Source of the DNA: an uncultured Enterobacterales bacterium | Lineage (GTDB): Bacteria; Myxococcota_A; UBA796; UBA2385 | Assembly: GCA_964464515.1 (NCBI GenBank) | Contig: CAYXGP010000002.1 | Location: forward strand, 3,130 to 67,129 | Direction: 5' to 3' | DNA: 64,000 bases | Shown: positions 45,418-64,000 of the stretch, one piece after another | Numbering within the stretch: position 1 is the stretch's first letter | How the letters are laid out: each line of letters starts with the position of its first letter | Program-made: the position numbers and the translations under genes | Notes under the pieces: generated by a model | Seen by the model: the letters and a program-made list of their open reading frames with translations, nothing else | Told to the model about the DNA's origin: nothing | Database searches by the model: none

Positions 45418-48400
45418 ATGACCGGCCGCTCCCACCTCGGATGGACACTCACCGAGCAGCTCCCCGCCGCCTCCGCCACCGTGGAGGTCTGGCGTGCCCG
45501 CCGCGAAGCCCGCTCTGAAGAGAGTGGCGGGACGGGGGTTGCCGAGGCCGAGATCTACCTCGGCCCCGCGGTGCTGGCCGAGCGCGCAGCGACGCTGCCG
45601 ACGTGGGGACCGTTCGCGCCCATCGAGAGCGGCCGCTCCGGAGAGCACTGGGTGGTGGTGGTCCCCGATCGCCTGCACAAGACCATCGCCGAGGCGTGTG
45701 AAGCGCTCTCGCACCCGGCGCGGCTGGGTGTCGCCTGGCACATCGCGGCGGTGGTGGCAGAGCTCCACGACCACGGCGGCTCCCACGGCGCGCTCCACGC
45801 CGGCTTCACCGGGCTCGACTCTCAGGGTCGCCTGTCGATCCGCCCGGCCCTGGCTACGCCGATGGTCACCGAGCCCGATCCCTCCGCGAGCCCCACGGCC
45901 GTCGACTGTCGGCAGCTCGGACGCATCCTCGACGCTCTCCGGCTCGATCGCTTCGACGACCCCGGCATCCCCTTGCTCCTCGGGGGGCTGCGGCGTGAGC
46001 GCGCGCGACTTCGGCTTCAGCCAGGGCGCGCCATCCGTCAGGCCATCTCCGCCATCCTCGTACGCTGGCCTGACTGGTCCGACACGCTCAGCGGAACGCT
46101 GGGTGAGGGGTGGGGCACTGACGGCATCGCGGGTACACTCCGCCAAGTCGCCGACCCTCACTGCGAGCTGGCCCCGGCGCCGCCGCGCGGCACCGAGATG
46201 TCGTTCCGACCCACCAGCGGCTTCCGGACCAGCAGCGCGGGACGAACCAGGGCGGCCATGCGTCCTCCCCCGCGTGCGGTCCCCGCGTTCACGGCGCGAG
46301 TCCGGATGGGACCGAGCGGTCCCCTCGCCCGCTCGATGGAGCCGATCGCAGCCCCCCAACCCGCCGCGCTCAGGATGCCCCTGCGCGGGACCGATCCCCC
46401 CGCCGCACTCCGGATGCCCCTACGTGGAGCCGATCCCCCCGCCGCTCCCCCCATCGTCCGCCTCCCGCTCCCCGCAGCCCTGGGAGGGGCCCCCTCCCGA
46501 GAGGCGCCGCGACCGGTGCGGGTCGCCTCGGCCCACGAAGCCCCCGAGCCGGTGAGCGCCGCGCTGCGTGTCCGCCCACCACAGCTCTCCAAAGCCGGGG
46601 CCGTCAAGGCCAGGACCATCGACGCCGAGCCTGACGAGGCCGTCGAAGACGAGCCGACCGCCAGCGGCGTCCCCATCTCGCGTGCTGCTGCGGTGGTGCT
46701 CCCGACAGCAGCGATCGCGCAACACCTCCGCAGCGACCCACACCTCCGCAGCGACCCGCACCTCCGCGCCGAAGCGCCGACGGCGGTCGTTGTGTCGCCG
46801 CGCGTCCGCGTCGAACCACTGACTCAGGCGAGGCCAGCGGCTGAAGCGCCGAGGATGAAGGCGCCAGCGACCGTGTCAGCAGTGACACCCGCGGTGGCGC
46901 CCGCAGGAGTGACACCCGTAGCCGAGGCTCCGGAAGCGAAGACTCCAACAGCAGAGACACCCGCGGCGGTGGCTCCAGAAGCAGAGACACCCACGACTGA
47001 AGAACCTACAGCGGAGACGCCCTCACCCGAGTCTCTGGAGACAGGGACCCTCGAGACGGGGACCCTCAAGACAGGGACCCTGGAGGTGGGAAGACCCGTC
47101 GTGGAGACGCCCTCGATAGAGGCACTCCCAGCGTCGGAACCGCCCACACCAGAGCCGCCAGCGCCAGAGCCTGTGGCCCCGCCGGTCCCCGCGCTGCCGA
47201 CGAACCTCGACGCCGGCGCGATAGCCGACCCGCCAGGGCCAGACGACCCACCAGAGCCAGCCAAAGCAGTGCCAGCCAAAGCAGTGCCAGCCGAAGCGGG
47301 GCCAGGCGATGCAGAACCGGACGAAGCAGAGCTGGACGCCGAACCAGCAGACTCCCAACCAGCGGACTTTGAGCCCGACGCCCCCCGGCCAGAGGCACCC
47401 ACCGCGACGGCGTCGGAGGTCGCTGCGCCGGAAGTCGCCGCGCTGCCAGTCGCTGTGCTGCCAGTCACTGCGCCGGAGGCCGTCCTGGCGTCACCGGTGG
47501 AGTCTCCGCCGGTCGCCTCGCAGCCCCAACCCGCCGCGCCGAAAGCCACGCCAGAGCTGCAGGCCCCAGAGCCGCAGATACCCGGCCTACCGGAGCTGCC
47601 GCCGCTGGAGCCCCCCCTCGAACCGCCGACTCCAGCGGGCGACGGCGCGCAGCCCCAGGCCTCGGACACCCCGGCCGAGACGCTCGCTCCTCCCGCCGAT
47701 CGGCCTCCACCCGATCCGGGCCCGCTGTCACCCGCGGAGCTGACCGAGGTGGACGAGCCCCCCTGGCTCGACGCGCCCGTTCTGGCAGACCTGGAGCCGA
47801 TGGAGGACTCCTTCTCGTTCACCAGCACCTCGGACACCCCGGACGATCTGCTCGATGGAGTGATCCAGGGCGGCTGGGAGCGGGTGGAGATCGACTCCGA
47901 GCCGTTCGCAGACGACGAGCCGTTCATGTTCGACGACTCACAGTCTGCAGAGCCGCCATCTGCAGAGCCACCATCTGCAGAGCCACCATCTGCAGAGCCA
48001 CCATCTGCAGAGGACGACGAGCTGTTCATGGATGAGCGGTTCGCCGAAGACGACCCCGAAGAGCTGCCGATCGAGCGCCCGGTGAGGGTCGCGTCAGAGG
48101 AGCTGAGCGACGCGCCCACCGTCGAGACCCGATCGGCCTCACCCCCCCCGGCCATCTTCGCCGTACCCACCCCGCTGCCAGACGAAGACGCCCCCACGGT
48201 GTTCGACGAGTCACCGATGCGCTCCCCCCCGGTGCTCGACCCCGGGCCCGAAGACGAGACCGTCGCGACCTTCGAGCCCCCCGCCGGTGTGGCCGACGCC
48301 GCGCCGCGCTGGGCCGGCATCCGGGGCGTCACGGGAGACGAGGCGCGCGAGGCCGAGCTGGGCTCCGGGAAGTGGTCCGAGACGGGCAGCCGGTCGATCG

Positions 48401-48813
48401 AAGAGCTGCGCATGCGCATGCCGGAGGGCGCGCCGCGCGAGCTGGAGCTGGAGGAAGACAGCGGAAACCTCACGGCCATCGCCGCTCTGGCGGTGCTCGC
48501 GATGGTCCTGGCCGCCGCGTTCTACTTCGGCTCCCGCCTGGAGCCCGCGCCCGCCTCGGCTGGTGGAGAGACGACCACCACCACGGAGGCCGACACCGCG
48601 CGCGTCACCGTCACGACGGTCCCGGAGGGCGCGCAGATCACCTTCGGTGGACGGGCCATCGGCCTGGCGCCAGCGGAGGTGGCGGTGCCAGCCGACGACG
48701 TCCGCACCGAGCTGTGTGGGCAGATCGGCGAGCGGCGCCACTGTCGCTCGGTCACCGGCGCCGAGCTGAGCGCGCGAGACCCGTTCGTCTTCGAGCTCGA
48801 GCTCTCGAACTGA
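45418..48813 (+). CDS. Giant low-complexity protein: N-terminal degenerate kinase-like domain, about 750-aa Pro/Ala/Glu-rich disordered region, one TM helix, C-terminal PEGA domain
   Basis: AWHIAAVVAELHDHGGSHGALHAGFTGLD (kinase catalytic-loop position without the Asp). Multiple internal tandem repeats. TM helix LTAIAALAVLAMVLAAAFYF. PEGA-like ARVTVTTVPEGAQITFGGRAIGLAP. Confidence 0.7.
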   Translation: MTGRSHLGWTLTEQLPAASATVEVWRARREARSEESGGTGVAEAEIYLGPAVLAERAATLPTWGPFAPIESGRSGEHWVVVVPDRLHKTIAEACEALSHPARLGVAWHIAAVVAELHDHGGSHGALHAGFTGLDSQGRLSIRPALATPMVTEPDPSASPTAVDCRQLGRILDALRLDRFDDPGIPLLLGGLRRERARLRLQPGRAIRQAISAILVRWPDWSDTLSGTLGEGWGTDGIAGTLRQVADPHCELAPAPPRGTEMSFRPTSGFRTSSAGRTRAAMRPPPRAVPAFTARVRMGPSGPLARSMEPIAAPQPAALRMPLRGTDPPAALRMPLRGADPPAAPPIVRLPLPAALGGAPSREAPRPVRVASAHEAPEPVSAALRVRPPQLSKAGAVKARTIDAEPDEAVEDEPTASGVPISRAAAVVLPTAAIAQHLRSDPHLRSDPHLRAEAPTAVVVSPRVRVEPLTQARPAAEAPRMKAPATVSAVTPAVAPAGVTPVAEAPEAKTPTAETPAAVAPEAETPTTEEPTAETPSPESLETGTLETGTLKTGTLEVGRPVVETPSIEALPASEPPTPEPPAPEPVAPPVPALPTNLDAGAIADPPGPDDPPEPAKAVPAKAVPAEAGPGDAEPDEAELDAEPADSQPADFEPDAPRPEAPTATASEVAAPEVAALPVAVLPVTAPEAVLASPVESPPVASQPQPAAPKATPELQAPEPQIPGLPELPPLEPPLEPPTPAGDGAQPQASDTPAETLAPPADRPPPDPGPLSPAELTEVDEPPWLDAPVLADLEPMEDSFSFTSTSDTPDDLLDGVIQGGWERVEIDSEPFADDEPFMFDDSQSAEPPSAEPPSAEPPSAEPPSAEDDELFMDERFAEDDPEELPIERPVRVASEELSDAPTVETRSASPPPAIFAVPTPLPDEDAPTVFDESPMRSPPVLDPGPEDETVATFEPPAGVADAAPRWAGIRGVTGDEAREAELGSGKWSETGSRSIEELRMRMPEGAPRELELEEDSGNLTAIAALAVLAMVLAAAFYFGSRLEPAPASAGGETTTTTEADTARVTVTTVPEGAQITFGGRAIGLAPAEVAVPADDVRTELCGQIGERRHCRSVTGAELSARDPFVFELELSN
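47944..48012. repeat. 15-nt x4.6 tandem repeat (TCTGCAGAGCCACCA) encoding SAEPP x4
   Basis: Read directly. It lies inside the giant protein. Confidence 0.95.
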
Positions 48814-48815
48814 CG

Positions 48816-50765
48816 GTGTCCACCGACACCGACTGGCGGAGCGGCGTCGGGGATCTGCCGACGAGCCCGGGTGTGTACCTGTTCAAGGACCGCCGGGGCC
48901 GGGTGATCTATGTGGGGAAGGCCAAGAACCTGCGGGTCCGCGTGCGGCAGTACGCGACCGGGCAGGATGAGCGTCTGATGCTGCCGTTCCTCCTGCAGCG
49001 CATCCGAGCGGTGACCACCATGGTGGTGCGCACCGAGAAGGAGGCGCTGATCCTGGAGAGCACCCTCATCAAGGAACACCGGCCTCGCTACAATACGCGG
49101 CTGGTGGACGACGCCGGCTTTCTTCACCTGCGGGTCGATACCGCCGCACGGTGGCCTCGCTTCGAGGTGGTCCGGGAGATCGATCAGCCTGGCGCGCGTC
49201 ACTTCGGGCCGTTCGCGTCGGCCTCCCGCGCGCGATCCACCGCGGAGTTCCTGCACCGGCGCTTTCCGCTGCGCACATGCAGCGACCACGAGCTGCGCAC
49301 GACCACCCGGCCCTGCCTGATGCACCAGATGGGTCGCTGCATCGCCCCGTGTGCCGATCTCTGCACCCCCGAGAGCTACGCGGCGGTGCTCCGGCAAGCG
49401 CTCCTGTTCCTGGAGGGGCGAGACCGCGAGCTGGCGACGGAGCTGCGCGAAGAGATGGTGCGCGCCGCCGAGGACGAACGCTACGAGGAAGCCGCCCGGC
49501 TGCGCGACCTCATCTCGGCGGTGACCATCAGCACCGAGCGGCAGGACGTCGCCGAGGAGAGCTGGGTGAGCCGCGACATCTGGGGCCTGTCCCGAGAACC
49601 AAGAAGCGGAGACTCGCCCGAGACGGAGGAGGATCTGTCTCGTAGATCGGGCCGTGGGGGAGGCGTTCTGGCGCTGGTCCCGGTTCGCCGCGGACGGCTG
49701 CGAGAGGCGGTGACCTTCCCGGTGGCCGCGGGGATGGCCGACGACGGGGAGCTGCTCAGCAGCGCGCTGAACACCTGGTACGGACCCGGTCGGGAGATCC
49801 CCCCGGAGATCCTGCTGCCGCTGCTCCCCACCGACGCCGACGCGCTGGTGGAGGTGCTCTCGGAGCGGCGGCGGGCGGCGGTACACCTGCGACAGCCCCA
49901 GCGCGGTCACAAGGCGCGCCAGCTCGCGCTGGCGATGGAGAACGCCCGGGTGCATCACCAGCGCCAGGGCGCCGAGGAGGCCGGGCGGCGCGCCGCGCTG
50001 GAGACCCTCCAGCGGATCTGCCATCTGCCGCGGCTGCCGCAGCGCATCGAGTGCTTCGACAACTCCAACATCCAGGGAGCGGACCCGGTGGCCGCGCAGG
50101 TGGTGTTCATCGGAGGGGTCCACGACCGGGCCCACACCCGCCGCTACCGGGTCAAGACCGTCACCGGCTCCGATGACTACGCCACCATGCGGGAGATCCT
50201 CGGGCGCCGACTGCGGCGCGGGCTGGCCGAGCGGGAGCTGCCCGATCTGCTGGTGGTGGACGGCGGTCGCGGCCAGCTCAGCGCAGCATTGGAGGTGTAC
50301 GCGTCGCTGGGGATCGCGCACCAGCGCCAGGGACACATCCCCGATGGCGTGCCGGTTCGCGGGCCGGTGGTTCCGGTGATCGGTCTGGCCAAGCCCCGCA
50401 CCGAGCGCAGCCGCGGTGACCGCGAGGCGATGGACAAGATCGTCCTGCCCGGGGTGCAGAATCTGGTGCGCCTCCCCGAGCGCAGCCTCGCGCTTCGCAT
50501 GCTCCAGCGCATCCGCGACGCGGCCCACGAGACGGCCGTGGGATACCACCGCCGCGTGCGTCGGCAGCGCACCCTCTCCAGCGCGCTGGACGAGATCCCT
50601 GGCCTGGGATCGAAGCGGCGGAAGGCGCTGCTGAAGCACTTCGGCTCGGTGCGCGACATGAAGGGGAAGACCGCCGCGGAGCTCACCGCCGTCTCCGGGG
50701 TCGGACCGAAGCTGGCCGAGCGCATCCATCGCGCTCTGAACGCCACCGACGTCACCAGCACATAG
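48816..50765 (+). CDS. uvrC: Excinuclease ABC subunit C
   Basis: GIY-YIG domain (PGVYLFKDRRGRVIYVGKAKNLRVRVRQY, EALILESTLIKEHRPRYN). UVR motif EEAARLRD. Endonuclease domain IECFDNSNIQG. C-terminal HhH IPGLGSKRRKALLKHFGS. GTG 48816. Confidence 0.95.
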   Translation: MSTDTDWRSGVGDLPTSPGVYLFKDRRGRVIYVGKAKNLRVRVRQYATGQDERLMLPFLLQRIRAVTTMVVRTEKEALILESTLIKEHRPRYNTRLVDDAGFLHLRVDTAARWPRFEVVREIDQPGARHFGPFASASRARSTAEFLHRRFPLRTCSDHELRTTTRPCLMHQMGRCIAPCADLCTPESYAAVLRQALLFLEGRDRELATELREEMVRAAEDERYEEAARLRDLISAVTISTERQDVAEESWVSRDIWGLSREPRSGDSPETEEDLSRRSGRGGGVLALVPVRRGRLREAVTFPVAAGMADDGELLSSALNTWYGPGREIPPEILLPLLPTDADALVEVLSERRRAAVHLRQPQRGHKARQLALAMENARVHHQRQGAEEAGRRAALETLQRICHLPRLPQRIECFDNSNIQGADPVAAQVVFIGGVHDRAHTRRYRVKTVTGSDDYATMREILGRRLRRGLAERELPDLLVVDGGRGQLSAALEVYASLGIAHQRQGHIPDGVPVRGPVVPVIGLAKPRTERSRGDREAMDKIVLPGVQNLVRLPERSLALRMLQRIRDAAHETAVGYHRRVRRQRTLSSALDEIPGLGSKRRKALLKHFGSVRDMKGKTAAELTAVSGVGPKLAERIHRALNATDVTST

Positions 50766-50774
50766 AATGCAGGC

Positions 50775-52697
<1,923 letters not shown>

Positions 52698-52818: not shown

Positions 52819-54363
52819 ATGCTTTGCCACACCCTCACCATGATGTCCGTCAACTTCGCGATGGACGGCTGGCGCCCCAACTCCCTGGGCTTCATCGACA
52901 GCACCACCCACCCCATCCGCTGCCACTGGAAGTACGCCGACAACGAGAAGGACTGCGCCAACATCCTGGCGTCCGCCGAGGAGGCCTGGGACGCGCAGGT
53001 GACCGACATGGGCTTCGAGGCGCCCACGCCTGACACCGACGGGATCCTCGACTTCTACATCGCGGACGACTGGACCAAGGGCGGCGCGTGGACAGCCTGC
53101 AACGACATGCGCGACTCGGACTCCGGGGACGGTCGTCGGAGCTGCCCCGCCTACGTGGTGATGGATCCGCACTACTCCGGCAAGAAGCTCCGAGCGACAG
53201 TGGTCCACGAGTTCAACCACGTCGTGCAGTTCTCCCATGACTTCATGGAGCCGTCGTACCTCATCTGGGAGGGGATGGCGTCCGCCGCCGAGCCCTGGAC
53301 CTCCAATCGCTACCAGACGTACATCAGCTACGTCCAGGCCTTCCAGGACGACCCCTGGCTCGGCCTCCTCGGAGACTCCTACTACCTGTGGGACGCCCAT
53401 CGCATCTGGTCATACTACGAGTACGGCGGCGCTGTCTGGGCGCTGCACATGGACGACGTGTGGGGCGGCGCGGTGGACGGCGAGGCCGGCGCGGATCTGT
53501 GGTGGGCGGCCAGCGAAGAGAGCGCGGGCACCGAGAACGAGCCCGACATCATGGACGCCTACGACACGGTGACCGGCGATTGGCAGGTGGCCCTGCTGGA
53601 TCTGGCGCAGGCGCGCGCGCGAATCGGAACCGAGCACGCGCCCGCCTGGGCGACCTTCACGCAGGACGTCCCGGACTCATACGCCGACGGCACCATCGCA
53701 TACGAGGCCCACGTGGAGTGGGCGGATCTCCCCGTGACGATCACGCCGGAGTTCATGCCCTTCGAGACCGGCATGGTCTACGTCCAGATCGGCAGCGTCC
53801 CTGAAGACGCCGCAGTGAAGGTGCGGCTCAAGGGAGACGAGGGGGTCACCTGGGGAGCGTTCTCGGTCGATGGGGCGGATGGAGACTGGGCCATCGCCAA
53901 TACCCTCACGCAGAACGGCAGCGGCGGCGACGTGATGATGGGAGCGGTCAACCTGGGTCCCCCGGAATTCGACGCCGATCCCGGGGGCTTCGGCACGTTC
54001 CCGGGCAACAACCTGCAGGCGTGGGACGTGCTCCTCGAGTTCGAGCAGGCTGAGCGGGTCGAGGACACCACGACGGGGACCACCGGCGGATCGACCACCG
54101 GCGGATCGACCACCGGTGGATCGACCTCCGGCGGATCGACCACCGGCGGAACCACGGGCGCCACCGGCGGCGCGACCTCCGGCGGCACGAGCGGCGGATC
54201 CGGCGGCGACGACACCGGTCGCCCGCCCCTGAAAGACGACACCGAAGAGCCGACGGGCTGTGGCTGCGCGAGCGGCCCGACCGGCGGGCTGTCCTGGATC
54301 GCGGTGACAGCGCTGGCTGCTGCCCTCCGGAGGCGAAGAGACACAGCGTCACACCAGGCTTGA
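52819..54363 (+). CDS. Metzincin-like zinc metalloprotease candidate with a MYXO-CTERM sorting tail
   Basis: HEFNHVVQFSH matches HExxHxxxxxH. Gly/Thr/Ser linker. C-terminal TGCGCASGPTGGLSWIAVTALAAALRRRR. GGGAG RBS before the ATG. No N-terminal signal peptide is visible. Confidence 0.7.
   Translation: MLCHTLTMMSVNFAMDGWRPNSLGFIDSTTHPIRCHWKYADNEKDCANILASAEEAWDAQVTDMGFEAPTPDTDGILDFYIADDWTKGGAWTACNDMRDSDSGDGRRSCPAYVVMDPHYSGKKLRATVVHEFNHVVQFSHDFMEPSYLIWEGMASAAEPWTSNRYQTYISYVQAFQDDPWLGLLGDSYYLWDAHRIWSYYEYGGAVWALHMDDVWGGAVDGEAGADLWWAASEESAGTENEPDIMDAYDTVTGDWQVALLDLAQARARIGTEHAPAWATFTQDVPDSYADGTIAYEAHVEWADLPVTITPEFMPFETGMVYVQIGSVPEDAAVKVRLKGDEGVTWGAFSVDGADGDWAIANTLTQNGSGGDVMMGAVNLGPPEFDADPGGFGTFPGNNLQAWDVLLEFEQAERVEDTTTGTTGGSTTGGSTTGGSTSGGSTTGGTTGATGGATSGGTSGGSGGDDTGRPPLKDDTEEPTGCGCASGPTGGLSWIAVTALAAALRRRRDTASHQA
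54085..54159. repeat. 15-nt x5 tandem repeat (GGCGGATCGACCACC) encoding GGSTT x5 in the linker before MYXO-CTERM
   Basis: Read directly. Confidence 0.95.
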
Positions 54364-56046: not shown

Positions 56047-56988
56047 GTGACCACCCCCCTCTGCACGTCCTGCCAGTCCCCGCACCCCACCATGGGGATC
56101 TGTCTGGAGTGCGGCGCCATCGCCCTGAACCCGAGCACCTGGCCGCAGCGTCTCCCGGTGGGGGTCGGCGAGCACAGGTACCGGGTGTTCGGGCGCATCG
56201 CCCGCGGCGAGAGCAGCGACGTCTTCATGGCCTGTCGCGACGCCCACCCCACCGAGCGGGTGGTGCTGAAGGTGCTGCGCGCCAGCGGTGACGAGGTGCT
56301 GATGGTCCGCGAGTGGCGCGCGCTGGAGGCGCTGTGGGCTTCTGAAGTCCAGGGGGCGGATTTCTTCCGCCAGCAGCTTCCCCAGCCGGTAGCCCAGGGG
56401 CCGCTGACCCGCGCCAGCGGACGGGACGGGCATGCCTCGGTCTTCCGATGGCGCAGCGGCTTCTGCCTGACGCTGGCCGACGCCGCGCGGGCCTTCCCGG
56501 GGGGACTCGATCCCCGCGCGGCGGTCTGGATGTGGCGGCGCCTGCTGGAGCTGCTCGGGTGGGTGCATCGCAGCGGGTGGGTCCACGGAGCGGTGCTCCC
56601 GCAGCACATCCTGCTGCACGAGCGCGATCACGGCGCGACCCTGGTGGGCTGGTCAGCGGCGTGCGCGATCGGTGCCGCCGCGCCGGTCATCCTCTGCCGA
56701 AGCGCGGGCCCGTACTACTCTGAGCGACGATGGAGCGGCGCGCGCCCCACGCCGACCTCCGATCTCGCGATGAGCGCGCGGTGCATGGCCCGAGTGCTCG
56801 GGGGAGATGCACGGTCGATGGAGCTGCCCGCAGCGGTTCCGCGTCCGCTCGTAGAGCTGCTGACCCGCGCAGCCGAAGAGCGAACAGACGACGCCTGGGC
56901 GCTCAACGACGCAGTCGAGGCCGCGGCCCGGCGAATCTACGGCCCGCCGCGGTACATACGATTTCGCATTCCGCGTGAGCCCGCGTGA
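56047..56988 (+). CDS. Zn-ribbon protein-kinase-like protein, predicted pseudokinase
   Basis: CTSC..x11..CLEC ribbon. GRIARGESSDVF Gly-loop-like segment. VVLKVL Lys. VHGAVLPQH in place of HRDxxxxN. No DFG Asp. The start may be GTG 56047, 56023 or 56017. Confidence 0.7.
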   Translation: MTTPLCTSCQSPHPTMGICLECGAIALNPSTWPQRLPVGVGEHRYRVFGRIARGESSDVFMACRDAHPTERVVLKVLRASGDEVLMVREWRALEALWASEVQGADFFRQQLPQPVAQGPLTRASGRDGHASVFRWRSGFCLTLADAARAFPGGLDPRAAVWMWRRLLELLGWVHRSGWVHGAVLPQHILLHERDHGATLVGWSAACAIGAAAPVILCRSAGPYYSERRWSGARPTPTSDLAMSARCMARVLGGDARSMELPAAVPRPLVELLTRAAEERTDDAWALNDAVEAAARRIYGPPRYIRFRIPREPA

Positions 56989-57021
56989 GCCCGCGATAGC
57001 CAACGCAGACGGAGGCCCCCC

Positions 57022-57996
57022 ATGGGATACGGAAGCTACAGCCACGAAGCCCACCGCGCGATCACCCGCACCCGCGCGAAGCTCCCCCGCCAGGAGGTCT
57101 TCAAGCAGCGGACCTGCCATCCGCTGATGGACCCGCAGGGCGTGGGGCTGCGAGAGAGCCGCGACAGCGACGCGCACCCCCGGTCGGTGGGGGTGGTGTT
57201 CGCGCTGGACGTCACCGGCTCGATGGGCGCCATCCCCGACACCCTCGCCCGCAAGGAGCTGCCCGGCTTCATGCGCACCCTGATGGACTGCGGCGTCGAA
57301 GACCCGCAGCTCCTGTTCATGGCCGTGGGCGACGCCTACTCCGACGCCGCTCCGCTGCAGGTGGGGCAGTTCGAGTCGGCCGCCGAGAAGATGGACCAGT
57401 GGCTCACCTGGAGCTACCTCGAGGGCAAGGGGGGCGCGTTCGGCGCCGAATCCTATGAGCTGGCGCTGTACTTCGCGGCGCGCCACATCGAGATGGACTG
57501 CTGGCTGCAGCGGCAGCGCCGCGGCTACCTGTTCATGACCGGCGACGAGCTGCCCTATCCGCAGGTCTCCCGCAGCCAGGTGCGGCGGCTGATCGGCGAC
57601 GAGCTGGAGGAGGATCTCCCGCTGGCGCCGATCGTCTCCGAGGTCGAGGAGCGGTTTGAGCCCTTCTTCCTGATCCCCGATCAGCGCCGTCGGGCCCACT
57701 GCGAGCGGGCCTGGCGCGATCTGCTGGGCGACCACGTGATCTGCATGGACACACCCGAGGACACCTGCCGGGTAGCCTCCGGGCTGGTGGCGCTGTGCGA
57801 GGGCGCTGTCCGCGATCTGGATGAGCTGGCCGAGCGGATGAAGGCGATGGGCGTGCCCCGCAAGCGCCTCGGAGCGGTCATCCGAGCGCTCACGCCCTTC
57901 GCCGCCAGCCGCGCCCTCGACAGCGCCCCCGAGCCCCGACTGGAGGAGGCGCCGCTGCCCGACGGCGACGAGAAGAGCGGACACCGACGCGCGTGA
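57022..57996 (+). CDS. von Willebrand factor type A (vWA) domain protein with a MIDAS motif
   Basis: VVFALDVTGSMG (DxTGS), LFMAVGD, LFMTGDE. GGAGG RBS 7 nt upstream of the ATG. Confidence 0.8.
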   Translation: MGYGSYSHEAHRAITRTRAKLPRQEVFKQRTCHPLMDPQGVGLRESRDSDAHPRSVGVVFALDVTGSMGAIPDTLARKELPGFMRTLMDCGVEDPQLLFMAVGDAYSDAAPLQVGQFESAAEKMDQWLTWSYLEGKGGAFGAESYELALYFAARHIEMDCWLQRQRRGYLFMTGDELPYPQVSRSQVRRLIGDELEEDLPLAPIVSEVEERFEPFFLIPDQRRRAHCERAWRDLLGDHVICMDTPEDTCRVASGLVALCEGAVRDLDELAERMKAMGVPRKRLGAVIRALTPFAASRALDSAPEPRLEEAPLPDGDEKSGHRRA

Positions 57997-59342
57997 GTGA
58001 AGCCTGGCTCGTCGCCGATCTGGGCTTCGGCGACGCCGGCAAGGGCACGATCACCGACTTCCTGGTCCGCGACCGCGGCGCGCGCGCGGTGATCCGCTGG
58101 AACGGCGGCGCGCAGGCCGGCCACAACGTGGTCACCCCCGACGGACGGCACCACACCTTCGCGCAATTCGGCGCGGGCACGTTCGTCGCGGGGGCGCGCA
58201 CCCACCTGGCATGCGACGTGGTGATCCACCCGCTGGCCCTCTGGATCGAGGCGGCGGTGCTGCGGCGCTCCGGCGTCTCGGACGCCCTCGATCGCCTCAC
58301 CATCTCGGAGCAGGCCCGCTGCATCACTCCCTTCCACCAGGCCGCCGGGCGGCTGCGGGAGCTGGCCCGGGGAGCAGAAGCCCACGGCACCTGCGGGGTG
58401 GGTGTCGGCGAGACGGTGGCCGACGCGCTGGCCGGGAGGGTGCTCCGCGCCGGAGCGCTGGCCCGCGGCTCCCGGAGGGATCTCCTGCGCCATCTGCGCC
58501 GACAGCAGCGCCTCAAGCGAGAGACCCTGGACGACATCCTGCGCGCCCTCGGCGATCACCCGCTGGCGCAGCCGGAGCGTGAGATCCTCGAAGATCCGGC
58601 TGTGCCCGCGCGCTGGCTGGAGGCCCTGGCGCCGCTGCGGGCCCGCTGGCGGGTGGTGTCCCCCGGAGCCATCGCGGATCTGCTCGCCGCGCCGGTCGTC
58701 TTCGAGGGCGCCCAGGGGGTGCTGCTCGACGAGTGGGTCGGCTTTCATCCCCACACCACCTGGAGCACCTGCACCGTCCAGCCGGCCCTGGATCTGCTGC
58801 GCGCCCACGGCTTCGCTGGGAAGGTTCACCGCCTGGGGGTGCTGCGGACGTTCACCCCCCGACACGGCGCGGGGCCGCTGCCATCGCAGGCCGCCGCGCT
58901 GGCCGACCTCCCCGAGCCCCACAACGACGCGGAGGGCTGGCAGGGCGACTTCCGACGAGGCTGGCTGGACCTCGTGCTGCTGCGCTACGCGCTGGCAGTC
59001 TGCCCGGTGGACGCCCTCGCGGTGACACACCTCGATCGACTGCGACCCGGCTGGCGATACTGCGGATCCTGGCGCGCGCGGCACCCGCTGCCCCCCGCGC
59101 TGCTGCGCGCCGATCCCCACGATCCCCGGCGCGCGCTGGGGATCCGCCCTGGCCCCCGGCGCGATCTGGCGCGGCAGGCCCGCCTCACGGCCGCCATCCA
59201 GGACGTCTGGGCCGAGACCGCTCCCCTGCCCGATCGCTTCATCCCCTGGCTCGAAGACGCGCTGGAGCGACCGGTGCGCCTCCTGTCGTCCGGGTCCACC
59301 GCCGCTCGTAAGCGCTGGAGGGGGGCACCACCCGACGGATGA
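57993..59342 (+). CDS. Divergent adenylosuccinate-synthetase (PurA) family GTP-dependent ligase, substrate unknown
   Basis: Collinear by eye with E. coli PurA: GFGDAGKGTITD, NGGAQAGHNV, GTCGVGVGE, FEGAQGVLLD, PRHGAGPLP, FRRGWLD, THLD, SSGS. GTG 57993 overlaps the vWA stop (GTGA). Confidence 0.75.
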   Translation: MSEAWLVADLGFGDAGKGTITDFLVRDRGARAVIRWNGGAQAGHNVVTPDGRHHTFAQFGAGTFVAGARTHLACDVVIHPLALWIEAAVLRRSGVSDALDRLTISEQARCITPFHQAAGRLRELARGAEAHGTCGVGVGETVADALAGRVLRAGALARGSRRDLLRHLRRQQRLKRETLDDILRALGDHPLAQPEREILEDPAVPARWLEALAPLRARWRVVSPGAIADLLAAPVVFEGAQGVLLDEWVGFHPHTTWSTCTVQPALDLLRAHGFAGKVHRLGVLRTFTPRHGAGPLPSQAAALADLPEPHNDAEGWQGDFRRGWLDLVLLRYALAVCPVDALAVTHLDRLRPGWRYCGSWRARHPLPPALLRADPHDPRRALGIRPGPRRDLARQARLTAAIQDVWAETAPLPDRFIPWLEDALERPVRLLSSGSTAARKRWRGAPPDG

Positions 59343-59384: not shown

Positions 59385-59984
59385 ATGGAGCAGGGAAAGT
59401 GCCGGGGATGTGGCGTGTGGCTCCAGCCGGAGTGGGTGGTCTGCCGCTACTGCGGGGCGCCCACCGGCCGTGAAGGTGCCGGCCCGGAGAGCTCGACGCA
59501 GCAGGCCCCCGAGAGGCCGGCGCCCCGAAGTCAGGCGCATCGCCCGATCGACGCAGCGCTCGATCTGGCCGAAGCGAAGACCCTGGTCGCCAACATCGAC
59601 GCGCGCTTCCCCGACATCGACGACCTGTACACCGGTGACAACATCCCGGACTCCAAGCTGTGCAACGCCCGAAAGACCTGCGAGGTCCCGGACGACGAGA
59701 CGATCCTGGTGCTGCTCGACGCCACGGTCTTCGGCTCGGCCAAGAACGCCATGCTGATCGGCACGCGCGCGATCTACCTGCACAACGACTGGGCCAGCGA
59801 CACCTCCGGGCGCTGGCGCGTGGGCTGGGAGGAGCTGGTGGACGCCACCCCCGAGGAGAGGGAGACCCACGAGGCCAGGGTCGGCCGCAAGGCCTGCCTG
59901 AACACCTCCGGCAGCAGCGCCGACCCCGACGAGGCGGCGGCGATCGCTGCGCTGGCACGTCAGATCCTGCTGGCACGCCGATGA
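59385..59984 (+). CDS. Zn-ribbon protein with an uncharacterised ~120-aa C-terminal domain
   Basis: CRGC..x9..CRYC ribbon. C-terminal ILVLLDATVFGSAKNAMLIGTRAIYLHN. GGGAGGA RBS. Its stop overlaps the cysM start (ATGA). Confidence 0.7.
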   Translation: MEQGKCRGCGVWLQPEWVVCRYCGAPTGREGAGPESSTQQAPERPAPRSQAHRPIDAALDLAEAKTLVANIDARFPDIDDLYTGDNIPDSKLCNARKTCEVPDDETILVLLDATVFGSAKNAMLIGTRAIYLHNDWASDTSGRWRVGWEELVDATPEERETHEARVGRKACLNTSGSSADPDEAAAIAALARQILLARR

Positions 59985-60895
59985 CCGGAGACATCGCGTC
60001 CCGCGTGGGAAACACCCCCCTGGTGCGGCTGTCGCGCGTGGTTCAGGGTCAGGTGCCCGAAGAAGTGGAGATCTGGGCCAAGCTGGAGTCGGCCAACCCC
60101 GGCGGCTCGGTCAAGGACCGCGCGGCCCTGTCGATGATCCGCGACGCTGAGCGCCGTGGTCACCTGCGGCCGGGGATGACCATCCTCGATGCGTCATCGG
60201 GCAACACCGGCATCGCCTACGGGATGCTCGCCGCGGCGCGCGGCTACCGGGTGGCGCTCTGTCTTCCATCCAACGCCAACGCCGAACGAAAAGCAGCCCT
60301 GCGCGCCTACGGAGTAGAGCTCATCGAGACCTCCCCGCTGGAGGGCAGCGACGGCGCGATCCGGCGCGCTCGCGCGCTGTTCGAGGCAGCGCCGCAGCGC
60401 TATCTGTACCTGGACCAATACAATAACGACGCCAACTGGCGCGCGCACTACGCCGGCACCGGCCCGGAGATCTGGTCGCAGACAGGCGGGCGCATCACCC
60501 ACTGGGTCACCTGCCTGGGCACCAGCGGCACCTTCGTGGGGGTGACACGCTTTCTGCGGGCTCGAGCCTCGCAGGTGTGGTGCGTCTCCGTCCAGCCCGA
60601 CGCGCCGTTCCACGGACTGGAGGGCCTCAAGCACATGGAGACGTCGATCGTGCCCGGCATCTACGATCCCGGCCTGGCCGACGAGAACCTCGGCGCGCCC
60701 ACCGAGGAGAGCTTCGCCCTGGTGCGACGCCTCGCGCGCGAGGAGGGTCTGCTGGTCGGCCCCAGCTCGGGTGCTGCGCTGTGGGGAGCCCTGCGGATCG
60801 GCCGCGATCTGCGCGAAGGCGTCGTGGTCACGCTGTTCCCCGACAGCGGCGAGCGCTACCTCTCCGAGCCCCACATCTGGAGCGAACCCGCGTGA
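59981..60895 (+). CDS. cysM: Cysteine synthase B-type PLP enzyme (CysM, CysO-thiocarboxylate-dependent type likely)
   Basis: VGNTPLVRL, PLP-Lys NPGGSVKDRAA, SSGNTG, GTSGT, GPSSGAA. Confidence 0.9.
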   Translation: MTGDIASRVGNTPLVRLSRVVQGQVPEEVEIWAKLESANPGGSVKDRAALSMIRDAERRGHLRPGMTILDASSGNTGIAYGMLAAARGYRVALCLPSNANAERKAALRAYGVELIETSPLEGSDGAIRRARALFEAAPQRYLYLDQYNNDANWRAHYAGTGPEIWSQTGGRITHWVTCLGTSGTFVGVTRFLRARASQVWCVSVQPDAPFHGLEGLKHMETSIVPGIYDPGLADENLGAPTEESFALVRRLAREEGLLVGPSSGAALWGALRIGRDLREGVVVTLFPDSGERYLSEPHIWSEPA

Positions 60896-61371
60896 CACCC
60901 CTGAAGATCACAGCCGCGGAGCTGGCCCGACTGCATGCCCACGTTGTCGAAGGCTACCCCTACGAGGTCGTGGGGATCCTGGCCGGCGACCGCGCATGCA
61001 TGCGCGTCGTGAGGGTACACCCGCTCGTCAATGAGCGCGCGGACAGCCCCCGAAACCGCTACCGCGTGAGCGGCCTGCTGCTGATGCGCGCCGAGCAGAC
61101 GCTGGGCGAGGAAGGGCTGGAGGTGGTGGGCTACTACCACTCCCACCCCGACCACCCCGCGATGTACTCCGACCATGATCGAGAGCACGCGCTGCCCAAC
61201 ATGAGCTATGTGATCGCCAGCGTGCGCGATGGGAGCGTCGTTGACACGCGCTGCTGGCGACTGCGGGAGGACCGCTCAGTCATGGACGCACAGCCATTTC
61301 AGCCATTTCAGCCCGCTCAACCCAATCAGCCAACTCAAACAGTCCAACCCATCCAAGAGGGCGCACCATGA
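60892..61371 (+). CDS. mec: JAMM/MPN+ metalloprotease (Mec-like)
   Basis: EVVG Glu and the HSHPDHPAMYSDHD JAMM motif. GTGA overlap with cysM. Q-x-x repeat tail. Confidence 0.88.
   Translation: MTPLKITAAELARLHAHVVEGYPYEVVGILAGDRACMRVVRVHPLVNERADSPRNRYRVSGLLLMRAEQTLGEEGLEVVGYYHSHPDHPAMYSDHDREHALPNMSYVIASVRDGSVVDTRCWRLREDRSVMDAQPFQPFQPAQPNQPTQTVQPIQEGAP
61291..61353. repeat. 9-nt x7 degenerate tandem repeat (CAGCCATTT-like) encoding QPF QPF QPA QPN QPT QTV QPI
   Basis: Read directly. It forms the C-terminal tail of the JAMM protein and is locally AT-richer. Confidence 0.85.
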
Positions 61372-61652
61372 GCACCCCGATCACCATACCCACCGCGCTC
61401 CGCGCCTACACCGGGGGCGAGGCTACCGTGCATGTAGACGGCGACACCGTGACCGACGCGCTGGACTCGCTCACCACCCGCTACGACGGCCTCGCCCGCC
61501 ACCTGCGCGACGATGCCGGTCGGCTGCGCAGCTTCGTCAACGTCTACCTGGGCGACGAGGACATCCGCTTCCTGAGCGACGGCGCGCAGACACGCCTGAA
61601 GCCCGGCGACGCCCTCGTCATCGTGCCCAGCATCGCCGGGGGTGTCGCGTGA
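61368..61652 (+). CDS. cysO: ThiS/MoaD-fold sulfur-carrier protein (CysO-like) ending AGG-VA
   Basis: 94 aa with a beta-grasp pattern. C-terminus VIVPSIAGGVA. ATGA overlap upstream and GTGA overlap downstream. Confidence 0.85.
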   Translation: MSTPITIPTALRAYTGGEATVHVDGDTVTDALDSLTTRYDGLARHLRDDAGRLRSFVNVYLGDEDIRFLSDGAQTRLKPGDALVIVPSIAGGVA

Positions 61653-62791
61653 CCGGCCTGCCTGAGCTCGATCACTGGGACATCGCCCGCTACTCACGCC
61701 ACCTCATCCTCGACGAGGTGGGGATGGAGGGGCAGCGACGCCTCAAGGGCGGCGCAGTGCTCTGTGTGGGCACCGGCGGACTGGGCAGCCCGCTGCTGCT
61801 GTATCTGGCCGCCGCCGGAGTGGGCCGAATCGGCGTCGTCGACTTCGACGTGGTGGATGAGTCCAATCTACAGAGGCAGGTGCTGCACGGCACCTCCTCC
61901 GTGGGGAGGCCAAAGGTAGAGAGCGCACGCGCACGCATCCTGGACATCAACCCCCGGTGCCAGGTCGATGTCTACGAGACCGCGATTCGTTCAGATAATG
62001 CTCTGGAGATCGTTGCGCCGTATGACGTCGTCGTAGATGGGACGGACAACTTCCCGACCCGCTACCTCGTCAACGATGCATGCGTCATCATGGGCAAGCC
62101 CAACGTCTACGGGTCCATCTTCAAATTCGAGGGGCAGGCGAGCGTCTTCAACTACCGCGGAGGACCCAACTACCGCGATCTGTACCCCGAGCCCCCACCC
62201 CCGGGTCTGGTGCCCTCCTGCGCGGAGGGCGGCGTGCTGGGGATCCTCCCCGGGGTCATCGGCTGCATCCAGGCCACCGAGACGATCAAGATTCTGCTGA
62301 ATCAGGGCGACACCCTGTCGGGCCGCCTGCTGCTGTACGACGCCATGCAGATGACGTTCCGCACGCTCAAGCTGCGGTGCGATCCAAACCGCGCGCCCAT
62401 CACCGAGCTGATCGACTACCAGCAATTCTGCGGGTTCCCCGCTGCAGACACCGAGCCCACAGCCGAGCCGTTCGAGCGCTTGGACGTCGCCACGATCGCC
62501 GCCGCGCGGGCGGACGGCTGGCGGCCGTTCGTGCTGGACGTTCGTCGAACGCACGAGGCGGAGATCGTCTCGCTGGGGTGGGCCGACGCCCTGATCCCCC
62601 ACGGAGACGTCGCCGCGAACCTCGATCGCATCCCCAGGGGCCGCGACATCCTGGTGCACTGCAAGATGGGCGGGCGATCCGCCAAGGCTGCCCGGGTGCT
62701 GGCCGACGCCGGCTACCAGCGGGTGGTCAACATGGAAGGCGGGATCACCGCCTGGGCGACCGAGATCGACCCGCGTCTGCCCACCTACTGA
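61649..62791 (+). CDS. moeZ: MoeZ/MoeB-type E1-like adenylyltransferase with a C-terminal rhodanese domain
   Basis: RYSRHLIL, GTGGLGSP nucleotide loop, DESNLQRQ, SCAEGGVLG. Rhodanese active-site loop HCKMGGRS. Confidence 0.9.
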   Translation: MTGLPELDHWDIARYSRHLILDEVGMEGQRRLKGGAVLCVGTGGLGSPLLLYLAAAGVGRIGVVDFDVVDESNLQRQVLHGTSSVGRPKVESARARILDINPRCQVDVYETAIRSDNALEIVAPYDVVVDGTDNFPTRYLVNDACVIMGKPNVYGSIFKFEGQASVFNYRGGPNYRDLYPEPPPPGLVPSCAEGGVLGILPGVIGCIQATETIKILLNQGDTLSGRLLLYDAMQMTFRTLKLRCDPNRAPITELIDYQQFCGFPAADTEPTAEPFERLDVATIAAARADGWRPFVLDVRRTHEAEIVSLGWADALIPHGDVAANLDRIPRGRDILVHCKMGGRSAKAARVLADAGYQRVVNMEGGITAWATEIDPRLPTY

Positions 62792-64000
62792 GTCGGCAGC
62801 CACACCTCGAACAGCGCGCCGCCGCCCGGCGCATCGCGCGCATCCACGGTGCCGCGGTGCTCCTCCACCAGACGTCGAACGATCGCCAGCCCGAGACCGG
62901 TGCCGGTGTCGGTGCCGGACACGCCCACGTCGAACAGCGTCTCGCGCAGCTCCGGGGGGAGCCCGGGGCCCTCGTCGCGAACGCTCCACCCCACGCGATC
63001 GGTCTCCACCCGCACCTCCACGAGGACATGACCGCCCCGCGGACTGTGCTGCAGCGCGTTCACCAGGAGGTTCTGGAGCACCCTGCCCAGATCGCGATCG
63101 TCGCCGAGCGTCCGGGCCTCCCGGGGGGCGTCCACCAGCAGCGCGACCCCCCGCGAGCGGGCCTGGACGTAGAGCGGCGCGCAGACCCGACGCGTCAGCT
63201 CACCCAGCTCCACCGTGAGCCGCTCACCGCGTGCCTTCAGCGCTTTTCCGGTCAGCTCCAGGGCGCTCCTGGCGGCCTCCTCGATCATCTTCACCATGTC
63301 TCGGAACTCGAACGGATCGGCGCACTCGCCGAGGTACTGGGCCGCCAGCATGATGGATGACAGCGGGCTGCGCAGATCGTGGGCCAGACCCGAGGCGTGC
63401 TCGGCGCGCAGCCGAGCGCTGTTGAGCGCCTCCACCGCGAAACCGGCCAGCCCCTGGAGGAGCAGGGAGGTCTGCCCCAGCTCCCAGTCGGTGGTGCTGC
63501 GGCTGTCGACGTAGATCACGCCCAGCGTCTCGTGCTGGGAGATGAGCGGCACGCACAGCGCCGCGCGGATCCCCAGCGCCAGGACGCTGGGCGCCGCGCG
63601 CAGATCACCGCGCTCGTCGAGATCGGTCGCCATCACCTCGCAGCGGTTCTCAAACGCCCGCTCGACGATGGACATCGACGGCGCGCCCTCGGGGACGCCC
63701 TGCGGAGCAGACGCCACCACCGTGTACTCCTTCCCTCGGCGCTGGAGCACGTAGGCGCGGTCGGCACCCAGCAACGAGACCGCCGCGTCGGCGATGGCCA
63801 CCAGGAGCGAATCGACCCGCCGAAACCGCGAGAGCTGCATCGCCAGGTGCATGAGCTGAGCGATCTGGCTGGGCTTGAGCTCGGGGCCGGCCTCGCGGCT
63901 GATGCGACTGAGCAGGACATCCGCCCGCTTTCGCAGCGGGACCAGGTGGACCTCGTCGGCGTAGGCGGCCACCCGGCGGGCGTCGCGCTCCGCCTCGGCG
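62785..64000 (-). CDS. GAF-domain sensor histidine kinase (N-terminus possibly beyond the window)
   Basis: GAF region. H-box AHDLRSPLSSI, N-box LQNLLVNALQHS, G1 RDEGPGL, G2 GTGLGLAIV. The reading frame stays open from GTG 63972 to the window edge. Its stop overlaps the moeZ stop by 7 nt. Confidence 0.85.
   Translation of the reverse strand, partial: AEAERDARRVAAYADEVHLVPLRKRADVLLSRISREAGPELKPSQIAQLMHLAMQLSRFRRVDSLLVAIADAAVSLLGADRAYVLQRRGKEYTVVASAPQGVPEGAPSMSIVERAFENRCEVMATDLDERGDLRAAPSVLALGIRAALCVPLISQHETLGVIYVDSRSTTDWELGQTSLLLQGLAGFAVEALNSARLRAEHASGLAHDLRSPLSSIMLAAQYLGECADPFEFRDMVKMIEEAARSALELTGKALKARGERLTVELGELTRRVCAPLYVQARSRGVALLVDAPREARTLGDDRDLGRVLQNLLVNALQHSPRGGHVLVEVRVETDRVGWSVRDEGPGLPPELRETLFDVGVSGTDTGTGLGLAIVRRLVEEHRGTVDARDAPGGGALFEVWLPTQ

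Follow-up and report, generated by a model that had tools for sequence, protein, structure and literature searches.

The locus described here occupies positions 56047-59342 of a 64,000-nucleotide (nt) stretch of contig CAYXGP010000002.1 (assembly GCA_964464515.1), and this whole stretch is called the window below. It was delineated from a listing of open reading frames (ORFs) and by direct reading of the DNA, and consists of three genes on the + strand: gene 1, for a Zn-ribbon protein with a kinase-like core; gene 2, for a putative von Willebrand factor A (vWA) protein with a metal-ion-dependent adhesion site (MIDAS); and gene 3, for a relative of adenylosuccinate synthetase (PurA). Genes 1 and 2 are separated by a 33-nt spacer, and a GGAGG stands ahead of the gene 2 ATG at 57022. 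The GTG of gene 3 overlaps the TGA of gene 2 exactly; judging from this overlap, genes 2 and 3 are translationally coupled. For gene 1, the GTG at 56047, which lies 11 nt past the upstream stop codon, gives an N-terminus that fits the homologues. The public gene call begins at ATG 56092 and thereby loses the first CxxC, which is conserved among homologues, so the GTG was adopted as the better start. Base composition is even throughout the window, and a search around the trio for mobile-element boundaries, promoters and terminators yielded nothing beyond chance. The locus is not a chance pattern of ORFs: dozens of unrelated genomes encode these three proteins in this order.

Gene 3 was assigned to its family by profile and structure-database searches. 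Pfam PF00709 (Adenylsucc_synt) matched residues 10-350 at an E-value of 8e-53 (180 bits, compared to a cutoff of 27), PurA chains in the PDB matched down to 6e-28, and the two sets of matches together cover residues 8-350; the identity to E. coli PurA is about 29%. All public records call the homologues adenylosuccinate synthetase. The scores against the NCBIfam purA equivalogs were nevertheless far too low for that name (best 138 bits v. a cutoff of 402; TIGR00184, 117 bits v. 396), and the PurZ model NF038379 gave 40.8 bits v. a cutoff of 300, over residues 6-263 only. PHROG 1211, which carries a PurZ-type label, was matched at 8e-64. By these scores, gene 3 encodes a member of the PurA superfamily that is not an adenylosuccinate synthetase equivalog, and the PurZ-like label of PHROG 1211 is probably a mislabel.

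The active site was examined by aligning gene 3 to E. coli PurA in MAFFT, after which 69 bacterial and 75 viral relatives were scored. The E. coli sequence used for residue numbering agrees with the PDB (1ade) alignments where the two overlap. In PurA, D13 is the catalytic base, H41 is the acid, Q224 contacts the 6-oxopurine, and D333 and S414 recognize guanine. L-aspartate is held by R131, T300/T301, R303 and R305, and the 5'-phosphate of inosine monophosphate (IMP) by N38, T129, T239 and R143'. Among the relatives, D13, K16, H41, E221, Q224, T239 and D333 are invariant or nearly so (at least 73 of the 75 viral sequences), and in the guanine region S414 is kept in 54 and G416 in 67 of the 69 bacterial sequences. 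Given that the site for guanosine triphosphate (GTP) and the catalytic residues are kept, GTP-dependent phosphorylation of the 6-oxo group is plausibly retained, by homology.

The second-substrate site is another matter. T301 is replaced by Q in 143 of the 144 relatives and T300 by W, Y or F; R303 is deleted in all 144; R305 has become F or another hydrophobic residue, and R131 is V, L or M. Equally family-wide are the changes of V273 to H and of N38 to Q (144/144 each), while T129 is C or V, K331 is H or C, and R143 is not conserved. In the window's own protein, R131 is paired with V136, T300 with W316, T301 with Q317, R303 with a gap and R305 with F320; phmmer alternatively pairs R305 with R321, an Asp-loop Arg that stays invariant in the family. 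Only T239 is kept among the IMP 5'-phosphate ligands of gene 3 (N38 is Q, T129 is C, and R143 is not conserved). According to these alignments, the amine site has been rebuilt throughout the family as an aromatic/His/Gln pocket and, because this pocket replaces the residues that hold aspartate, the activated purine would go to an amine other than aspartate.

These results bear directly on the plainest account of gene 3, i.e. that it is a normal adenylosuccinate synthetase, whether a second isozyme or the only purA of the organism, and merely looks divergent. Such an enzyme would have the full-length fold and catalytic residues that were found, it is what the public records name, and the 64-kb window contains no other purA. 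It would not be expected to fall far below every NCBIfam PurA equivalog cutoff, to have lost R131, T300, T301, R303 and R305 across its relatives, or to be always linked to a vWA gene; moreover, the same clade occurs on accessory megaplasmids and plasmids and in phages, the hosts of which presumably have a purA of their own. This account is regarded as highly improbable.

For gene 2, no Pfam or NCBIfam family was matched at E <= 1, nor was any PADLOC model or PDB sequence. In the AlphaFold2 model (predicted template-modeling score, pTM, 0.75), the core is good from residue 143 on (predicted local distance difference test score, pLDDT, mostly 80-95), residues 56-115 are at ~56-75, and the tail that follows the N-terminal Met-Gly is poorly ordered. 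Foldseek matched the model to vWF A1/A3, integrin I domains, collagen VI and NorD (probability 1.0, E ~1e-5), with the ArnAB complex (PDB 8s05) at rank 31 among the vWA matches. In viral homologues the MIDAS motif reads DVTGS, DETGS or DLTGS. Gene 2 thus has, as modeled, a vWA fold with a MIDAS; no curated vWA sequence profile having matched, this membership is taken from the predicted structure and the motifs only. Searches returned 4430 homologous matches, which bear the NCBI name "VWA domain-containing protein", and PHROG 2971 was matched at 1e-53. At 50% identity, the family falls into 2017 clusters, nearly all of which are stand-alone proteins of 290-350 residues. The four longest among the best 150 clusters were considered as fusions and rejected: P0450 is a frameshift artefact, P0462 contains an intein (located directly ahead of the MIDAS G-D-E), and P0438 and P0411 apparently have mis-called ends.

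The AlphaFold2 model of gene 1 had a pLDDT of 88.9. Its best Foldseek match was the kinase domain of PknB (E 7e-11, TM-score 0.73); PknB, CK1, PLK1 and VRK were all matched at probability 1.0, and the pseudokinase VRK3 was among the top matches. Sequence-profile matches were weak (Pfam Kdo, 0.016; PADLOC MkoA, 2e-8; PHROG 3043 "kinase", 1.6e-18). PADLOC PD-T4-6 was matched as well, and both the MkoA and the PD-T4-6 matches are confined to the kinase domain. Homologue searches gave 330 matches, and the four Cys residues of the ribbon are kept as CPxC...CxxC in 27 homologues. Residue numbers for gene 1 are those of a 323-residue ORF. In the family alignment of 28 members, the alphaC Glu (E99) is at least 90% conserved. 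The position of HRDxKxxN reads H-G-A-V-L-P-x-H, and that of DFG reads V-G-W-S, in all 28 aligned chromosomal Zn-ribbon members; H190, G191, P195, H197, H205, G206, G211 and W212 are invariant. Variants that carry a J-domain (described below) retain the Asn of the catalytic region, and the version in phage Catera also retains the Asp. Hence, the bilobal fold, beta3 Lys and alphaC Glu of a kinase are present, and the HRD Asp, Asn and DFG Asp of an active Hanks-type enzyme are absent. By these canonical criteria, gene 1 encodes a pseudokinase. A short tandem duplication (CGTGAGCCCG twice, at 56974-56996) spans its stop codon.

The original prediction, made by reading the DNA and its ORF translations, had described three same-strand genes with a 33-nt gap and a GTGA overlap, a ribbon and a dead kinase core in gene 1, a vWA fold with a MIDAS in gene 2, and a set of PurA motifs in gene 3. 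The layout was confirmed by the ORF listing and direct reading. The conserved Cys residues, the AlphaFold2/Foldseek kinase fold and the missing catalytic motifs bear out the reading of gene 1, as the Foldseek matches at probability 1.0 and the MIDAS residues conserved at 95% or more do that of gene 2. Every motif listed for gene 3 was reproduced by the residue mapping, and the contention that its GTP-binding and catalytic apparatus is intact beside an altered second-substrate site held in the 69 bacterial and 75 viral relatives. The features are collected in Table 1.

Table 1. Features of the three-gene locus (window coordinates) and, in the last three rows, annotated genes beside plasmid copies (coordinates of the respective locus).
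Feature	Position	Strand	Evidence or conservation
Gene 1, Zn-ribbon + kinase-fold pseudokinase	56047..56988	+	313 aa from GTG 56047; ORF, start fit to homologues, AlphaFold2/Foldseek
Zn-ribbon CTSC...CLEC (C16, C19, C29, C32)	56062..56112	+	C29, C32 invariant; C16, C19 >=90% (28 sequences)
beta3 Lys K85 in VVLKV	56269..56271	+	invariant in family alignment
Degenerate catalytic loop VHGAVLPQH-RDHG-VGWS, residues 189-213	56581..56655	+	without HRD Asp, catalytic Asn, DFG Asp
Gene 2, putative vWA/MIDAS protein, 324 aa	57022..57996	+	AlphaFold2 model + Foldseek, homologues
N-terminal Met-Gly of vWA protein	57022..57027	+	near-invariant across homologues
MIDAS motif D63-V-T-G-S67	57208..57222	+	D63, G66, S67 >=95% conserved (91 homologues)
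Second MIDAS element G174-D175-E176, end of beta4	57541..57549	+	>=95% conserved (91 homologues)
Gene 3, predicted PurA-family GTP-dependent ligase, 449 aa	57993..59342	+	Pfam PF00709, PDB, PHROG matches
GTGA start/stop overlap, genes 2/3	57993..57996	+	direct sequence reading
P-loop GDAGKG (D14 = PurA D13, K17 = K16)	58029..58046	+	invariant in 69 bacterial, 73/75 viral members
Q41-A-G-H44 (PurA N38 replaced by Q; catalytic H41 kept)	58113..58124	+	Q, H invariant in 144/144
T-C-G-V-G (PurA T128-T129-G-R131-G)	58389..58403	+	C in 66/69 bacterial; C or V in viral
W316-Q-G-D-F-R-R, replacing PurA Asp loop T300-T-G-R-R-R-R	58938..58958	+	family signature aromatic-Q-G-x-F-R
"NUDIX hydrolase" gene beside plasmid triad, L086	7373-8020		annotation
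"NUDIX hydrolase" gene beside plasmid triad, L087	3103-3816	-	annotation
"NUDIX hydrolase" gene beside plasmid triad, L088	7407-8039		annotation

The distribution of the trio in bacteria was surveyed with a gene 2 profile in ~185,000 species genomes (one genome per species). At least 580 carriers were found, and 79 loci were retrieved. These 79 genomes represent at least six phyla (Myxococcota, Chloroflexota, Burkholderiales with Variovorax, Pseudoduganella and Accumulibacter, Verrucomicrobiota, Acidobacteriota and Planctomycetota), and in about 70 of them genes 1, 2 and 3 share a strand and keep their order. Lack of co-conservation had been named beforehand as an outcome that would refute the original prediction, and the trio passed that test. 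Identities to the window proteins across phyla are 55-69% for gene 2, 40-56% for gene 3 and 28-49% for gene 1; the gene 3 homologues of Myxococcus, Stigmatella, Pyxidicoccus, Corallococcus and Polyangiaceae are 50-59% identical. The PurA-like gene adjoins the vWA gene in nearly all loci examined. The folds, residue patterns, co-occurrence and gene order reported to this point are observations. In Myxococcus, Corallococcus and Sandaracinaceae loci (L009-L012 and L036), a second vWA paralogue, which like the first starts MGYGSYSH, was noted after the PurA-like gene, at ~8.5-9.4 kb.

What surrounds the trio is not conserved with it. In Stigmatella aurantiaca and a Polyangiaceae metagenome-assembled genome, the three genes are together in entirely different flanks. 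All-against-all clustering of the flanking ORFs of 80+ bacterial loci gave within-genus synteny only and no conserved fourth gene, and in a Pfam scan of the 103 genes immediately beside the trio, no family occurred in more than three loci (gene calls in the high-GC flanks are heuristic). The upstream gene and gene 4 of the window are co-conserved with the trio in 0 of 82 loci. The neighbours are mostly housekeeping genes, e.g. those for ribosomal protein S2, a tRNA synthetase or a K+ transporter, and 2 of the 103 match PADLOC models, both of them generic Ser/Thr kinases.

These flanks are pertinent to the idea that the trio is an anti-phage or abortive-infection system of the TerY-P type, in which a vWA/pseudokinase sensor would turn on a ligase whose product is a toxic or signalling nucleotide. 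The TerY-P triad is likewise a three-gene unit with a vWA protein beside a kinase-fold protein, and sporadic phyletic distribution, plasmid copies and the matches of gene 1 to the PD-T4-6 and Mokosh MkoA kinase models all speak for defence. Locus L003 lies amid STAND-kinase, patatin, Uma2 and AAA_15/21 genes, and gene 4, which follows the trio in the window, matches BnzA weakly. However, genes 2 and 3 match no PADLOC model, the flanks resemble a defence island in just the two neighbours mentioned, and the vWA protein is unusually conserved across phyla for a defence gene; furthermore, the module is widespread in large lytic phages (see below). TerY-P itself combines the TerY vWA protein with a Ser/Thr kinase and a PP2C phosphatase, whereas the trio has no TerY/vWA/PADLOC profile match, a dead kinase and a nucleotide ligase in third place, and no PP2C phosphatase was found in the conserved flanks. 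We consider a defence role quite unlikely. The original prediction had framed the locus as "TerY-P-like" and had entertained an anti-phage role. The framing is merely an analogy, as the trio has no phosphatase and its vWA protein is not TerY, and the role has gained little from the neighbourhood and phage surveys.

Phages were searched with gene 2 and gene 3 in tblastn. Among cultured phages, ~200 Mycobacterium phages (201 and 202), 10 Rhizobium phages and 6 Vibrio phages were found with each query. The mycobacteriophages are Bixzunavirus (cluster C1, e.g. Catera/Bxz1), and their gp249, gp250 and gp252, annotated as "kinase", hypothetical or "PurA-like", are true homologues in the order of the trio. 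In Catera, gp249 ("kinase") is a J-domain (HPD) fused to the gene 1 pseudokinase family (E 4e-42 with a gene 1 hidden Markov model), so that a J-domain stands where the Zn-ribbon would, with the Asn and Asp kept; gp250 is the vWA protein (37% identity to gene 2); gp251 is an additional small ORF of 88 residues between the vWA and PurA-like genes; and gp252 is PurA-like (43% identity to gene 3), with the W-Q-G-x-F-R signature. The Rhizobium and Vibrio phages have the vWA + PurA-like pair without the pseudokinase, in place of which a Met-rich protein of ~250 residues is encoded upstream (L084, 3750-4544; L085, 4246-4965; no Pfam match).

On plasmids of Rhodococcus, Tsukamurella and Agrobacterium vitis, the J-domain pseudokinase, vWA and PurA-like genes are accompanied by a "NUDIX" gene. 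The Agrobacterium NUDIX protein carries an NrtR winged helix, and a pooled flank scan revealed one further member. By eye, the Nudix box of the Rhodococcus copy is degenerate and has no catalytic Glu residues, for which reason at least some of these plasmid genes probably encode nucleotide-sensing repressors instead of hydrolases. The NrtR-like neighbours hint at control of the operon by an ADP-ribose-like ligand.

In IMG/VR, at least 559 contigs bear a gene 2 relative, and the 80 best loci were examined; many of these are on contigs of 100-420 kb with GC contents from 26% to 70%, and some of the DNA on the high-GC "viral" contigs may be bacterial. Of the 80 loci, 75 have the vWA and PurA-like genes side by side, 36 also have a gene 1-like gene, and 34 encode a helical protein of ~123 residues, without a Pfam match, directly upstream of the vWA gene (~370 nt). 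The pseudokinase is one of at least four alternative third partners. Together, the phage, plasmid and IMG/VR layouts indicate that the vWA + PurA-like pair is the invariant core and the third partner is interchangeable. The Zn-ribbon triad of the window is one tight clade of a much more diverse family, which in the collections sampled appears to be largely phage-borne. Neighbours of the phage copies include genes for homing endonucleases, ligases, helicases, HAD_SAK, R2K ATP-grasp, TROVE/Ro60 and, occasionally, enzymes of nucleotide or nicotinamide adenine dinucleotide (NAD) metabolism. Homing endonuclease genes of the HNH and GIY-YIG types are frequent beside the phage copies.

Some of these neighbours prompt a pool-repair or counter-defence reading, namely that the ligase carries out a one-step conversion of the (d)IMP to (d)AMP type that depends on ammonia or a small amine and bypasses PurB. 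Phages might profit from this in hosts that deaminate their adenine nucleotides or deplete these or NAD. The filling of the aspartate pocket by bulky aromatic residues would suit a much smaller nucleophile, and no adenylosuccinate lyase is co-conserved. Phage copies are found near genes for ribonucleotide reductase, NMNAT/NUDIX, phosphoribosyltransferase, IMPDH/GMP reductase and NAD synthase, and NrtR-like (ADP-ribose-type) regulators adjoin on three plasmids and one viral contig. Yet an obligatory vWA protein is left unexplained, neither a glutaminase nor another ammonia-delivery partner accompanies the ligase, and the links to NAD and ADP-ribose come from a handful of loci. The reading is judged to be rather improbable.

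The reading that we prefer is that the three genes form one self-contained, horizontally mobile cassette of phage type, which would encode a GTP-dependent 6-oxopurine-nucleotide ligase that uses an amine other than aspartate and has an obligate vWA subunit; its chances of being right are put at about even. Its chemistry is inferred from PurA enzymology. By that homology, gene 3 would bind GTP and a 6-oxopurine nucleotide, phosphorylate the ring carbonyl, and pass the purine so activated to an amine other than L-aspartate. Gene 2 would be its obligate partner, most simply a stoichiometric subunit that delivers the second substrate, is that substrate, or targets the enzyme. Gene 1 would be a dead kinase-fold adaptor, the Zn-ribbon of which probably docks on the vWA domain in the manner of ArnA-ArnB or Sec23/24, and which is replaced in other lineages by the J-domain pseudokinase or by small unrelated proteins. 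Both the formation of such a complex and the biological role are likewise inferred. Because the family reaches its greatest diversity in large lytic phages, amid genes of nucleotide, DNA and RNA metabolism, the cassette is best regarded as a module of phage type that modifies nucleotides or serves the nucleotide pool, and not as a TerY-P-like phospho-signalling or defence triad. The earlier notion of a pseudokinase/vWA sensor that controls the ligase survives at best by half: the pairing with the vWA protein stands, but the pseudokinase is interchangeable.

Several findings weigh against the preferred reading. Two bacterial loci of the Myxococcota type (L007 and L014) keep the pseudokinase and vWA genes with no PurA-like gene downstream, so the vWA/pseudokinase pair can exist alone. 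Gene fusions, which would attest to an interaction, were not found among the best 150 of the 2017 vWA-family clusters, of which the four longest were read. The partly altered phosphate site (N38Q, T129C, R143 not conserved) means that the first substrate may not be free IMP. The amine substrate, the nucleotide substrate and catalytic activity itself are all predictions from homology, and the window holds no canonical purA. At L007, a QueA-like gene on the opposite strand was noted where the PurA-like gene would stand.

A more specific form of the chemistry is offered as speculation and is thought unlikely. In this protein-directed ligation, the N-terminal Gly amine of the vWA protein, freed by removal of the Met, would attack the 6-phosphoryl-purine to yield an N6-linked adenosine monophosphate (AMP; ~+330 Da). 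The Gly is a candidate nucleophile because the ligase has lost its carboxylate-holding residues and has no constant partner other than the vWA protein. The Met-Gly start is present in 90 of 91 bacterial, plasmid and phage homologues, 77 of 77 MIDAS-bearing IMG/VR homologues and 149 of 150 vWA/PurA-like pairs, i.e. in essentially every vWA partner. In addition, the residues that hold both carboxylates of aspartate are gone, with aromatic, Gln and His residues in their stead; the vWA gene is the sole partner never missing beside the ligase; and genes 2 and 3 are predicted to be translationally coupled. On the other hand, the invariant Asp-loop Arg would fit a small carboxylate-bearing amine equally well, and a comparison of vWA N-terminal motif classes with ligase pocket residues gave a correlation that only follows phylogeny. 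A corollary that is no more probable is that the pseudokinase or J-protein reads or remodels the modified complex. If the ligation were real, it would be a base-linked nucleotidylation of protein, not described before, and widespread in large phages and scattered bacteria.

Known systems can be compared with the preferred reading of a ligase with an obligate vWA subunit. The closest characterised enzyme is E. coli PurA (PDB 1ade), which has in common with gene 3 the fold, GDxGKG, D13, H41, Q224, T239, D333 and S414 and, expectedly, GTP-dependent 6-O-phosphorylation; gene 3 differs in having no L-aspartate site (R131, T300, T301, R303 and R305) and in its constant pairing with a vWA gene. PurZ, of the phage 2-aminoadenine pathway, and ToyG, of the toyocamycin pathway, are PurA paralogues that phages or gene clusters have recruited for non-standard purine chemistry. 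In PurZ, which is the closest characterised enzyme by analogy, the nucleotide substrate has changed (to dGMP) and L-aspartate is kept, whereas in gene 3 it is the amine site that has changed. Partners of the DatZ/MazZ type were not found co-conserved with the trio in the flank scans. For gene 1 and gene 2, the nearest parallels are ArnA-ArnB and Sec23/24, in which a Zn-ribbon protein is encoded next to a vWA protein as in the trio. ArnA, by contrast, has an FHA domain instead of a pseudokinase, and ArnAB is regulated by active kinases, controls motility genes, and has no enzyme partner; the Sulfolobus complex is described in PMC6509490 and PMC12852372.

The closest true relatives of the trio are the uncharacterised Bixzunavirus genes, of which the PurA-like one is no more than mentioned in the literature found (PMC2771037, PMC9476963). 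A phage "adenylosuccinate synthase homolog" is likewise named only in passing (PMC2771037, PMC9476963, PMC10892097), and Kaur et al. 2020 (PMC7159879) and Iyer et al. 2021 (PMC7824862) hold nothing relevant to the module. In agreement with the original prediction, which knew of no system with this composition, no functional description of a vWA + PurA-like module was found in the literature searched, which left out Burroughs & Aravind 2016.

What is new would be a ligase of the PurA family whose amine site is rewritten and whose vWA partner is obligate; that the chemistry of the cassette is categorically new is doubtful. PurA paralogues have already given one surprise, in PurZ and the Z-genome. 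The present family would be another such clade, in which the pocket for the amine substrate has been cleanly rewritten throughout and which is strictly coupled to a vWA protein, and it is large: by the vWA partner, it was counted in at least 580 of ~185,000 species genomes, at least 559 IMG/VR contigs and ~220 cultured phages. Its elucidation could bring to light a modified purine nucleotide not seen before, a route to adenine nucleotides that does not need PurB, or a novel modification of proteins, and it would give a function to PHROGs 3043, 2971 and 1211 (currently labelled "kinase", unknown and PurZ-like, respectively). The question lends itself to direct tests, since some of the carriers are genetically tractable, namely Bxz1/Catera on M. 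smegmatis, Rhodococcus jostii RHA1 with pRHL1, Variovorax, and Myxococcus.

The remainder of the locus's surroundings in the window is of a housekeeping or secreted character. Upstream are UvrC (48372-50765), a secreted protein with MopE-motif and FG-GAP features (50775-52697), and a 514-residue protein with a Gly/Thr/Ser-rich tail (52819-54363). Gene 4 (59385-59984, + strand) encodes 199 residues with an N-terminal Zn-ribbon; the weak PADLOC match to BnzA (Bunzi; 1e-6) is to residues 74-138. It is followed on the + strand (59966-62791) by genes for a PALP enzyme (CysM-like), a Prok-JAB protein (Mec+-like), a ThiS-like carrier, and ThiF + rhodanese (MoeZ-like). This sulfur-carrier cluster resembles a CysO-type cysteine pathway and adjoins the trio, to which it is unrelated; its ThiS/ThiF genes, which had prompted the suggestion of thiocarboxylate donors, are not co-conserved with the trio. 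A GAF-histidine kinase gene lies on the minus strand at 62785-63972.

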